This document shows, in pieces, positions 15,592-40,049 of a stretch of 64,000 bases of DNA. This DNA comes from an uncultured Acidobacteriota bacterium (GTDB lineage Bacteria > Acidobacteriota > Terriglobia > Terriglobales > Acidobacteriaceae): NCBI GenBank assembly GCA_963711675.1, contig CAVQFB010000002.1, forward strand, positions 427,632 to 491,631, written 5' to 3'. The first letter of the stretch is position 1. Every line of letters begins with the position of its first letter. A program made the position numbers and the translations under genes. Under the pieces are notes generated by a model, which ran no database searches, was not told the DNA's origin, and saw only the letters and a program-made list of their open reading frames with translations.

Positions 15592-15953
15592 GCGAAGTTC
15601 CTATTGTTCTTCAATTTTGGATGAAGTGGAAGAGCACATCGGTGTACGCATGGCAGCTAAGACCGAAGTCCGCCTCGGCAGGATGCTAGAATGTTTGGGT
15701 CAGGCATCGGTCCCGCGCGACGTCTTCTCGCCAACCCCGCCAGGTCCGGAAGGAAGCAACGGTAACGAGCTCTTGCGTGTGCAGTGGGTAACCGGTGTCT
15801 GGCTTTAAGTGCTCCAGCCTCGGAAGCTCCACGCACATATCGTTCGATGCCGCGGTGCGCCTTCACCAGTCGGATTCGACTCTGACAATCCGTTAGACAT
15901 TCTTTCGGCGATACCTCAGAATATTCAGTTTCACTCATAACCTGGAGACCTCA

Positions 15954-39191: not shown

Positions 39192-39770
39192 ATGAGAAAA
39201 AGATGGAGAGGAGTGACGTCGGGCGGACTGCTGCTGGCGGCGATCATGGTGGCGAGCGTTTCGCAGCCGGTGCGAGCAGACGAGAAGAAGCCTGTGGCGC
39301 CTCCGAAGTGGAAGGTGGGAGACATGGCGCCGGATTTCAAACTGCAGTACTTCGATGGCACCGGCCTGAAGAGTGTGAGCCTGGGCCAATATCGCGGCAC
39401 AAAGAACGTCGTACTTGCATTTTATGTTTTCGCCTTCACCGGGGGTTGAACCGAGCAAATGAAAAACTTCCAGCGAAATCTGCAGAAGCTGGAAGCAGCC
39501 GACACCCAGGTCCTGGGTGTGAGCATGGATAGCCCCTTCGCAAACAAGGCCTTTGCCGACCAAATTGGAGTTACCTTCCCGCTGCTCAGTGACTGGGGCG
39601 GCGACACAACCCGTCAGTACGGCGTCTACTTCGACAAATATAAAGCGGCTCGCCGGGTGAATTTCCTGATCGGAAAGGACGGGAAAATTCTGGAGGAGCA
39701 GGTGGACGATGAGGCCATCGATCCGACCAAACTCGTGGTCGCATGCGAGCGCCATAAATTGAAGAATTGA
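39192..39770 (+). CDS. Secreted AhpC/TSA-redoxin family peroxiredoxin with in-frame TGA (probable selenocysteine) at the peroxidatic position
   Basis: ORFs 39192..39449 and 39459..39770 share one frame (offset 267 nt) and are separated only by TGA 39447-49 plus three sense codons. The join reads NVVLAFYVFAFTGG[TGA]TEQMKNF, where Prx proteins have ..FTxxCT... There is a signal peptide and a hairpin 17 nt downstream. Confidence 0.7.
39467..39495 (+). promoter_or_regulatory. Candidate bacterial SECIS hairpin
   Basis: CTTCCAGC (39467-74) pairs with GCTGGAAG (39488-95). The 13-nt loop starts with G, and the stem starts 17 nt after the UGA. Confidence 0.45.

Positions 39771-39972: not shown

Positions 39973-40049
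<77 letters not shown>

Follow-up and report, generated by a model that had tools for sequence, protein, structure and literature searches.

Are two short open reading frames (ORFs) that share a frame and are parted by a single stop codon the remains of a broken gene, or one gene whose stop is read as an amino acid? The question is raised by positions 39192-39770 of a 64,000-nucleotide stretch of Acidobacteriota DNA (contig CAVQFB010000002.1; "the window" is this whole stretch). ORFs 39192..39449 and 39459..39770 lie there on the forward strand in the same frame, with TGA 39447-49 as the sole interruption, just as a preliminary description of the sequence had it. The region is one gene, encoding an AhpC/TSA-family peroxiredoxin that belongs to the AhpE/Bcp-like branch. 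Very probably its product is an exported enzyme with a peroxidatic selenocysteine (Sec) at UGA 39447-49, inserted in a SelB-dependent manner at the direction of a two-hairpin RNA signal downstream of the codon. Features are listed in Table 1.

If C is substituted for U, the product of 192 aa gives a match to PF00578 (AhpC-TSA; E 4.6e-34, 117.5 bits against a cut-off of 26) over residues 42-166, corresponding to profile positions 1-121 of 124. The domain straddles the TGA and therefore neither ORF half is a complete fold, a point on which the preliminary description was right. Its read-through junction, NVVLAFYVFAFTGG-U-TEQMKNF, also stands. The closest solved structures are the Bcp-type peroxiredoxin of S. 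tokodaii (2ywn/4g2e, E 4.6e-23) and AhpE of M. tuberculosis (1xvw, E 3.6e-19). The TGA, which had been proposed to occupy the position of the peroxidatic Cys, falls in the column of the catalytic Cys of both 2ywn (AFTQVC) and AhpE (AFTGIC). The Sec of two reference Sec-peroxiredoxins (Bcp-type WP_011365628.1 and a PrxU-type protein), which are 31-32% identical to the window protein, lies in the same column. T83, U86 (the TGA) and R154/155 are invariant in 81 sequences and occupy the columns in which AhpE and 2ywn have their catalytic Thr, Cys and Arg. These two structures (and 4g2e) differ from the window protein in having Cys rather than Sec, no signal peptide, Pro at position -7 and C-terminal regions that do not align with the segment around C185.

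The Pro at -7 of the canonical peroxiredoxin motif PxxxTxxC is absent, as noted previously: the window protein has Val there, and 75% of the clade has Ile. Close Cys-containing relatives share Val, and Pro is seen only in a distant one (P0014); Val/Ile at -7 is a family trait that is not linked to Sec.

For the homologue scan one genome per species was used, and the 80 best-matching loci, all from Terriglobales/Acidobacteriota metagenome-assembled genomes (MAGs), showed 68-85% amino-acid identity. TGA stands at exactly this codon (within FAFTGG-TGA-T) in 80/80 species-level loci and in 87/87 sequences; no TAA, TAG or sense codon was found at the Sec column among the 80 loci. Slightly more distant relatives (P0012, P0014 and P0015) have Cys there (TGC or TGT). 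Homologues thus carry Cys or TGA at precisely the column where the preliminary description looked for one or the other. Both gene halves keep their 68-85% identity despite free synonymous drift outside the hairpins described below, from which it follows that purifying selection evidently acts on the whole protein.

Two trivial sources of the TGA were considered and rejected. The identical pair of 85-aa and 103-aa ORFs is present on at least nine independently assembled metagenome contigs (ENA, JGI, Logan and NCBI), which rules out a sequencing error. Global reassignment of UGA (code 4 or 25) was rejected because 35 of the 66 long ORFs of the window end in TGA, which is its commonest real stop and also terminates this gene (39768-70).

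In a relative with 66% identity (P0004, L174:181-759) the Sec codon is replaced by TTA (Leu) and the codon two places before it is TGT (Cys), giving FAFT-C-G-L; both hairpins are intact. Sec seems to have been lost here very recently, and the catalytic thiol may have moved; alternatively, the 995-bp contig could be misassembled.

Standard gene callers were expected to report two fragments, and this is what public records contain. Both ORFs are entered as separate proteins in the NCBI record (493,236-bp contig), and JGI labels the C-terminal piece alone 'peroxiredoxin'. Public pipelines leave the gene split because no curated NCBIfam model fits. The score against the PrxU model NF040737 (an equivalog) is 70.3 bits, below its curated cut-off of 270, and that against the Bcp/PrxQ model NF006960 (PRK09437) is 72.5 bits, below a cut-off of 140. 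The resolving Cys at +5 that is common in Bcp/PrxQ members is absent (the sequence reads U-T-E-Q-M-K), as is a UxxC or UxxU redox motif, the Sec being followed by T-E-Q and the sole Cys being C185.

Relatives returned by protein searches are of two kinds. Many are fragments of ~105 aa that match no more than the C-terminal 53% of the query, a mark of gene callers halting at a TGA. Others span the full length and show Cys or 'W' in the column of the TGA. In the 'W' forms a second W replaces the normal stop and the protein continues beyond it, as in code-4 translation, and the DNA of all four distant ones (L087, L088, L089 and L177; 44-59% identity) has TGA at the column. P0001, P0003, P0011 and other JGI entries are likewise IMG/JGI code-4 translations on short contigs, in which Sec is read as Trp and the C-terminus is falsely extended beyond the genuine TGA stop. 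Such translation is an annotation artefact that incidentally flags selenoprotein genes.

Two hairpins, H1 and H2, follow the UGA within the coding sequence. The 8-bp hairpin of the preliminary description (39467-74/39488-95) exists and corresponds to H1; it has a 13-nt loop that starts with G, and begins 17 nt after the UGA. Taken in a single sequence H1 is unremarkable, since its z-score against shuffles is only -1.63 (minimum free energy, MFE, -13.2 kcal/mol). H2 (39502-39520; MFE about -12.6 kcal/mol), which had been overlooked, is conserved equally to H1. Its core can be read as 8 bp with a GUY triloop or as 7 bp with a GGUCC pentaloop, and no other hairpin on either strand of the window closes an RGUYN loop with a stem of 7 bp or more.

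The evidence for RNA structure comes from the entropy of synonymous codons, computed per codon over the 81 sequences. Synonymous freezing is limited to codons -1, +6 to +9, +14, +15 and +17 to +26 (numbered from the UGA), with drift nearly everywhere else. Mean normalised entropy is 0.064 for the 10 codons with a wobble base in a stem and 0.714 for the other 130 (Mann-Whitney p = 1.2e-7). Codons +1 to +5 drift freely. The codons of the H1 stem are frozen and those of its loop (+10 to +13) vary freely. A Gly codon within H2 is GGT in 100% of sequences, while the other Gly codons of the gene favour GGC. An RNAalifold consensus over the 81 sequences recovers both hairpins, and neither has changed in L089 and L177, relatives whose proteins are 56-59% identical. 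H1 and H2 are probably both functional parts of the recoding signal, and the conservation of the two suggests a bipartite element.

Constraint is also seen immediately upstream of the UGA. The Gly at codon -1 (39444-39446) is GGT in 96% of the 81 sequences, whereas the preceding Gly codon uses all four synonyms. This bias, explained by neither hairpin, suggests a constraint on the immediate context of the UGA (GGU-UGA-A).

Indirect evidence for Sec use comes from three sides. Among cultured Terriglobales, Occallatibacter riparius is documented to use Sec and encodes Sec-containing FdhA, AhpD-like and deiodinase-like proteins (PMC12013277). Contig L022 (868,927 bp, from an Acidobacteriota MAG) carries both the peroxiredoxin gene and, ~3.5 kb away, a deiodinase-like gene with an in-frame TGA. 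The deiodinase-like protein has 55% identity to the Occallatibacter selenoprotein, and a candidate selenocysteine insertion sequence (SECIS), GGCGGG-AGGUU-CCCGCC, begins 10 nt after its UGA. FdhA of O. riparius, used as a query, led to 80 soil metagenome loci, with TGA in 79/79 that were readable. In these, 11 nt after the UGA, lies the hairpin GGUGCCC-GGUCU-GGGCGCC, a textbook SECIS with its GGUCU loop 18 nt after the UGA; 0/500 shuffles reach its observed covariation score. Soil contigs with a related FdhA also carry parts of the Sec machinery: selD-selA-selB (L153), a Sec-form selD followed by tRNA-Sec (L119), selA (L130) and tRNA-Sec (L123). The selD of L119 (L119:311-1452) is itself a selenoprotein gene (SCAG-TGA-AAK), with tRNA-Sec within a few bases after it, and the cluster of L153 (L153:14662-18535; 75% GC) adjoins fdhA.

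Searches for further selenoprotein genes gave nothing convincing besides the peroxiredoxin gene, either among same-frame ORF pairs split by TGA in the whole window or in a mini-SECIS scan of ~1.5 Mb of Terriglobales DNA, a scan that also missed the deiodinase-like gene of L022. Two ORFs of 145 and 140 aa on the reverse strand of the window (28451-28014 and 27956-27534) share a frame with TGA between them. Their junction (SKVRK-TGA-PPSSG) has no redox motif and a gap precedes the second start; they are probably merely neighbouring genes.

How well do the two hairpins fit known signals? In the bacterial SECIS (bSECIS) model that PMC13188914 (Fig. 2A) gives after Zhang & Gladyshev, the upper stem has 4-16 bp and the apical loop 3-9 nt, with a G within its first two positions; UGA and loop are 16-37 nt apart, and the MFE is ≤ -7.5 kcal/mol. 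H1 agrees in upper stem (7-8 bp), spacing (25 nt) and MFE (about -12.9 kcal/mol), and its loop of 13-15 nt is too long. H1, which the preliminary description placed in the region typical of bacterial SECIS elements, is conserved and its synonymous sites are frozen, but by its loop it fails the bSECIS model when taken alone. H2 agrees in loop (GUC, 3 nt), upper stem (8 bp) and MFE (about -12.6 kcal/mol), and its spacing of 60 nt is too great. If the 29 nt of folded H1 are discounted, the effective spacing of H2 becomes 31 nt, within the range of 16-37 nt. H2 also shares the design of the FdhA hairpin and that of the deiodinase-like gene of L022, with a GC-rich stem of 7-8 bp and GGU at the apex; H1 does not.

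A number of results weigh against a Sec-peroxiredoxin recoded through H1 and H2. The window and ~1.4 Mb of flanks of the 80 homologous loci yielded no selA, selB, selD or tRNA-Sec, which at ~20 kb per genome is weak evidence. ARAGORN, run for tRNA-Sec on the window and 86 loci, gave only tRNA-Met in the window, and tblastn with SelA, SelB and SelD of E. coli, then with closer SelA/B/D from soil contigs L119, L130 and L153, gave no match in the window or the peroxiredoxin loci. Neither H1 nor H2 singly fits the published bSECIS model. Rfam has no SECIS-like family in the whole window (gathering threshold) or in 39400-39560 (permissive threshold), where only chance miRNA matches appeared. A covariance model (R1) built only from the FdhA SECIS hairpins matched neither H1 nor H2, its best window matches (~10 bits, E > 1) lying in unrelated places; the likeness of H2 to the FdhA hairpin is therefore one of design only. 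Within the clade the stems are near-invariant, with one-sided changes (mostly to G-U) and no double-sided compensatory change, so the case for structure rests on synonymous constraint and not on covariation.

The Cys-form relatives add a further difficulty. They would be expected to lack the hairpins, yet this is not clearly so, and the hairpins are not strictly tied to Sec. In P0012 (TGC) both are intact; in P0015 (TGC) H1 is intact and H2 is disrupted by a Gln-to-Lys change; in P0014 (TGT), the most distant and the only Cys form with the canonical Pro, both are weakened. The simplest reading may be that they are decaying relics of a SECIS after a recent Sec-to-Cys conversion or Sec loss. This would fit the dynamic exchange of Sec and Cys in peroxiredoxins, for which five independent Cys-to-Sec events are described (PMC1794560). 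The hairpins of Cys forms also leave room for a function unrelated to Sec. Against H2 as the site of SelB binding, the most distant Sec forms (L087 and L088; 44-46% identity) have one canonical hairpin at the position of H1 and no H2. That hairpin has a GGC loop and a bulged U, and a G-C pair in one sequence is an A-U pair in the other, a compensatory change.

The assignment of roles to the two hairpins is accordingly tentative. The favoured one, with H2 as the SelB-binding hairpin and H1 as a structured spacer, has at best an even chance. A bolder proposal, possible though rather doubtful, is that they represent a distinct bipartite class of bacterial SECIS, in which H2 binds SelB at 60 nt and an obligatory, sequence-conserved H1 spacer with an irrelevant loop brings it into range.

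Could the TGA simply end translation? If only the 85-aa N-terminal fragment were made, the downstream ORF would be a decaying remnant, and both the listing of two ORFs in public records, including the NCBI contig, and the failure to find Sec machinery in the window accord with that. A decaying remnant would scarcely keep TGA at the same codon in 80/80 species, never TAA or TAG, and exactly on the catalytic Cys column, with purifying selection on both halves; these conservation data make a pseudogene very improbable, and effectively refute it. Separate translation of the two ORFs into a two-piece peroxiredoxin, with a restart at the Met of codon +4, is more improbable still. That ATG is 100% conserved and is taken as a start by gene callers, but the arrangement would remove the catalytic residue itself from an otherwise intact active site (T83 and R154/155), and homologues consist of one chain that has Cys there. 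UGA might also be recoded to a residue other than Sec, either Cys, through a tRNASec-like tRNA(Cys) delivered by SelB ('tRNAReC', reportedly described by Vargas-Rodriguez et al. in 2018), or Trp or Cys, through hairpin-stimulated near-cognate read-through. The inserted residue is not readable from sequence, the hairpins depart from the canonical bSECIS model and the Cys forms of the enzyme are evidently functional, all of which would suit such recoding. A Cys codon is, however, one mutation from TGA and yet occurs in 0/80 loci, which argues for a Sec-specific advantage; moreover, in a second gene of L022 TGA stands where Sec is known to occur, and Sec is used by a cultured bacterium of the Terriglobales. 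Recoding to another residue is consequently quite unlikely.

More weight attaches to an explanation in which H1 and H2 have an RNA role unrelated to Sec (mRNA stability, translational pausing for export or regulation) and the SECIS is something else, or H1 alone, but it too is unlikely. It draws on the persistence of H1 (P0015) or of both hairpins (P0012, and the Leu variant P0004) where Sec is absent, on their going unrecognised by the FdhA-trained covariance model, and on L087 and L088, in which a single canonical hairpin at the position of H1 suffices. On the other hand, the interval from the UGA to H1, where codons +1 to +5 drift, holds no further conserved structure, and constraint is restricted to ~80 nt past the UGA. 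Of the Cys forms, the most distant (P0014) has the weakest hairpins, as expected of a decaying relic SECIS, and H2 has the G-U apical motif of the bSECIS model.

Under the preferred reading, a Sec-peroxiredoxin with a two-hairpin signal, SelB and Sec-tRNA(Sec) would insert selenocysteine at UGA 39447-49, recoding being directed by the conserved RNA element whose two hairpins occupy ~80 nt of coding sequence after the UGA. H1 has the canonical SECIS position and a large unconserved loop, and H2 has the short G-U apical loop typical of SelB-binding hairpins. Folded H1 would then act as a structured spacer that brings H2 to an effective distance of ~31 nt from the UGA, where SelB would bind it.

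The protein is probably exported to the periplasm, as a signal peptide is predicted in all 79 evaluable homologues. The preliminary description had called it secreted, and the charged n-region, hydrophobic core and AxA-type site (...VRA|DE in the window) agree with this. In some orthologues the signal peptide contains a lipobox-like motif (LLAGC in L020 and L022; LVAGC; also L013), with no Cys at this place in the window copy; in some species the enzyme may be a lipid-anchored protein.

U86 and C185 are the only two redox-active residues of the mature protein, which is expected to be of ~18 kDa. A possible resolving Cys near the C-terminus had been pointed out before; C185 is indeed present and is invariant in the clade, and it presumably has this role. 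The mature enzyme would reduce peroxides via a selenenic acid at U86, aided by T83 and R154/155. C185 would resolve the selenenic acid as a selenenylsulfide in an atypical 2-Cys-type cycle, and a periplasmic thiol reductant would recycle the enzyme.

The preliminary description treated Sec-peroxiredoxins as an established class, and the TxxU proteins are in fact an experimentally verified family of bacterial selenoproteins (PMC13188914; PMC1794560). The gene is a newly recognised and widely mis-annotated member of this class. Like PrxU of E. acidaminophilum (NF040737) and the Bcp-type WP_011365628.1, it encodes an AhpC/TSA fold with Sec predicted at the peroxidatic TxxU from an in-frame UGA, and it has Cys-form homologues. 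PrxU, for which the TxxU class has experimental verification, is that of Eubacterium acidaminophilum and is said to have been reported by Söhling et al. in 2001. The window protein differs from the PrxU-type and Bcp-type references in its predicted signal peptide, which both lack, in Val/Ile instead of Pro at -7, in the conserved C-terminal Cys and in the two-hairpin RNA element. Export, the low identity to these references, TGA in all 80 best-matching Terriglobales species genomes and public mis-annotation make it distinct. The peroxiredoxin-like thiol:disulfide oxidoreductase selenoproteins (PMC13188914) also belong to PF00578 and have Sec in a redox motif, but theirs is UxxC (or UxxU), whereas the window protein reads U-T-E-Q in a TxxU context with no Cys at +3.

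In common with a canonical bSECIS of the E. coli fdhF type, the RNA element is a stem-loop structure in coding sequence just after the UGA, and H2 has an 8-bp stem with a small apical loop beginning G-U. It differs in that the hairpin with the G-U loop is 60 nt from the UGA, while H1, the hairpin at canonical distance, has an unconserved loop of 13-15 nt. A two-hairpin recoding element that fits no single-hairpin SECIS model may be the new part of this system.

Terriglobales are among the most abundant soil bacteria. If the enzyme is a clade-wide exported selenoprotein, their periplasmic peroxide defence would depend on selenium supply, and public annotations (NCBI and IMG) would systematically split the gene or misread its UGA as Trp under code 4. 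A functional two-hairpin arrangement would broaden the rules by which bacterial selenoproteins are sought and would provide a natural test of the limit on the distance of the SelB hairpin from the UGA. Were the SECIS truly bipartite, standard predictors and pipelines would be systematically missing this abundant soil selenoprotein, and possibly others of the same build.

Table 1. Features of the peroxiredoxin locus and its surroundings (positions in the window unless a contig is named)
Feature	Position	Strand	Remarks
Predicted Sec-peroxiredoxin coding sequence	39192..39770	+	192 codons including Sec86; true stop TGA 39768-70; exported (predicted) AhpC/TSA-family peroxiredoxin
Predicted Sec-type signal peptide	39192..39278	+	MRKRWRGVTSGGLLLAAIMVASVSQPVRA then DE; charged n-region, hydrophobic core, V-R-A site; read from sequence, with a putative cleavage site
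Active-site Thr codon, T83 of the TxxU motif	39438..39440	+	invariant (100%) at codon -3; in the column of the active-site Thr of solved peroxiredoxins
In-frame UGA, predicted to be read as selenocysteine U86, peroxidatic position	39447..39449	+	conservation, Cys-form and structure alignments
Hairpin H1	39467..39495	+	stem CUUCCAG(C)/(G)CUGGAAG, 7-8 bp; loop 13-15 nt; starts 17 nt after UGA
Hairpin H2	39498..39524	+	core ACACCCAG-GUC-CUGGGUGU at 39502-39520, flanked by a 2-bp outer helix GC/GC
Codons R154-R155, one being the conserved peroxiredoxin active-site Arg	39651..39656	+	invariant; align with the Arg of AhpE and 2ywn
C185 codon, only Cys, candidate resolving residue	39744..39746	+	100% conserved in clade (codon +99), at least 90% in wider family
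tRNA-Met gene	39973-40049		directly downstream of the peroxiredoxin gene
Tyrosine-integrase-like ORF, 417 aa	40094-41347	-	after tRNA-Met
Bacterial small SRP RNA gene	15704-15801		Rfam RF00169, 68.7 bits
Deiodinase-like selenoprotein gene	L022:13838-14572	-	TGA 14215-14213 at the known Sec position of the family, FGSYT-U-PPFRRE

Downstream of the peroxiredoxin gene, the integrase-like ORF that follows tRNA-Met is replaced on contig L002, which is otherwise identical, by a shorter integrase (179 aa, PF00589) and other genes. This suggests a variable integrated element at tRNA-Met.

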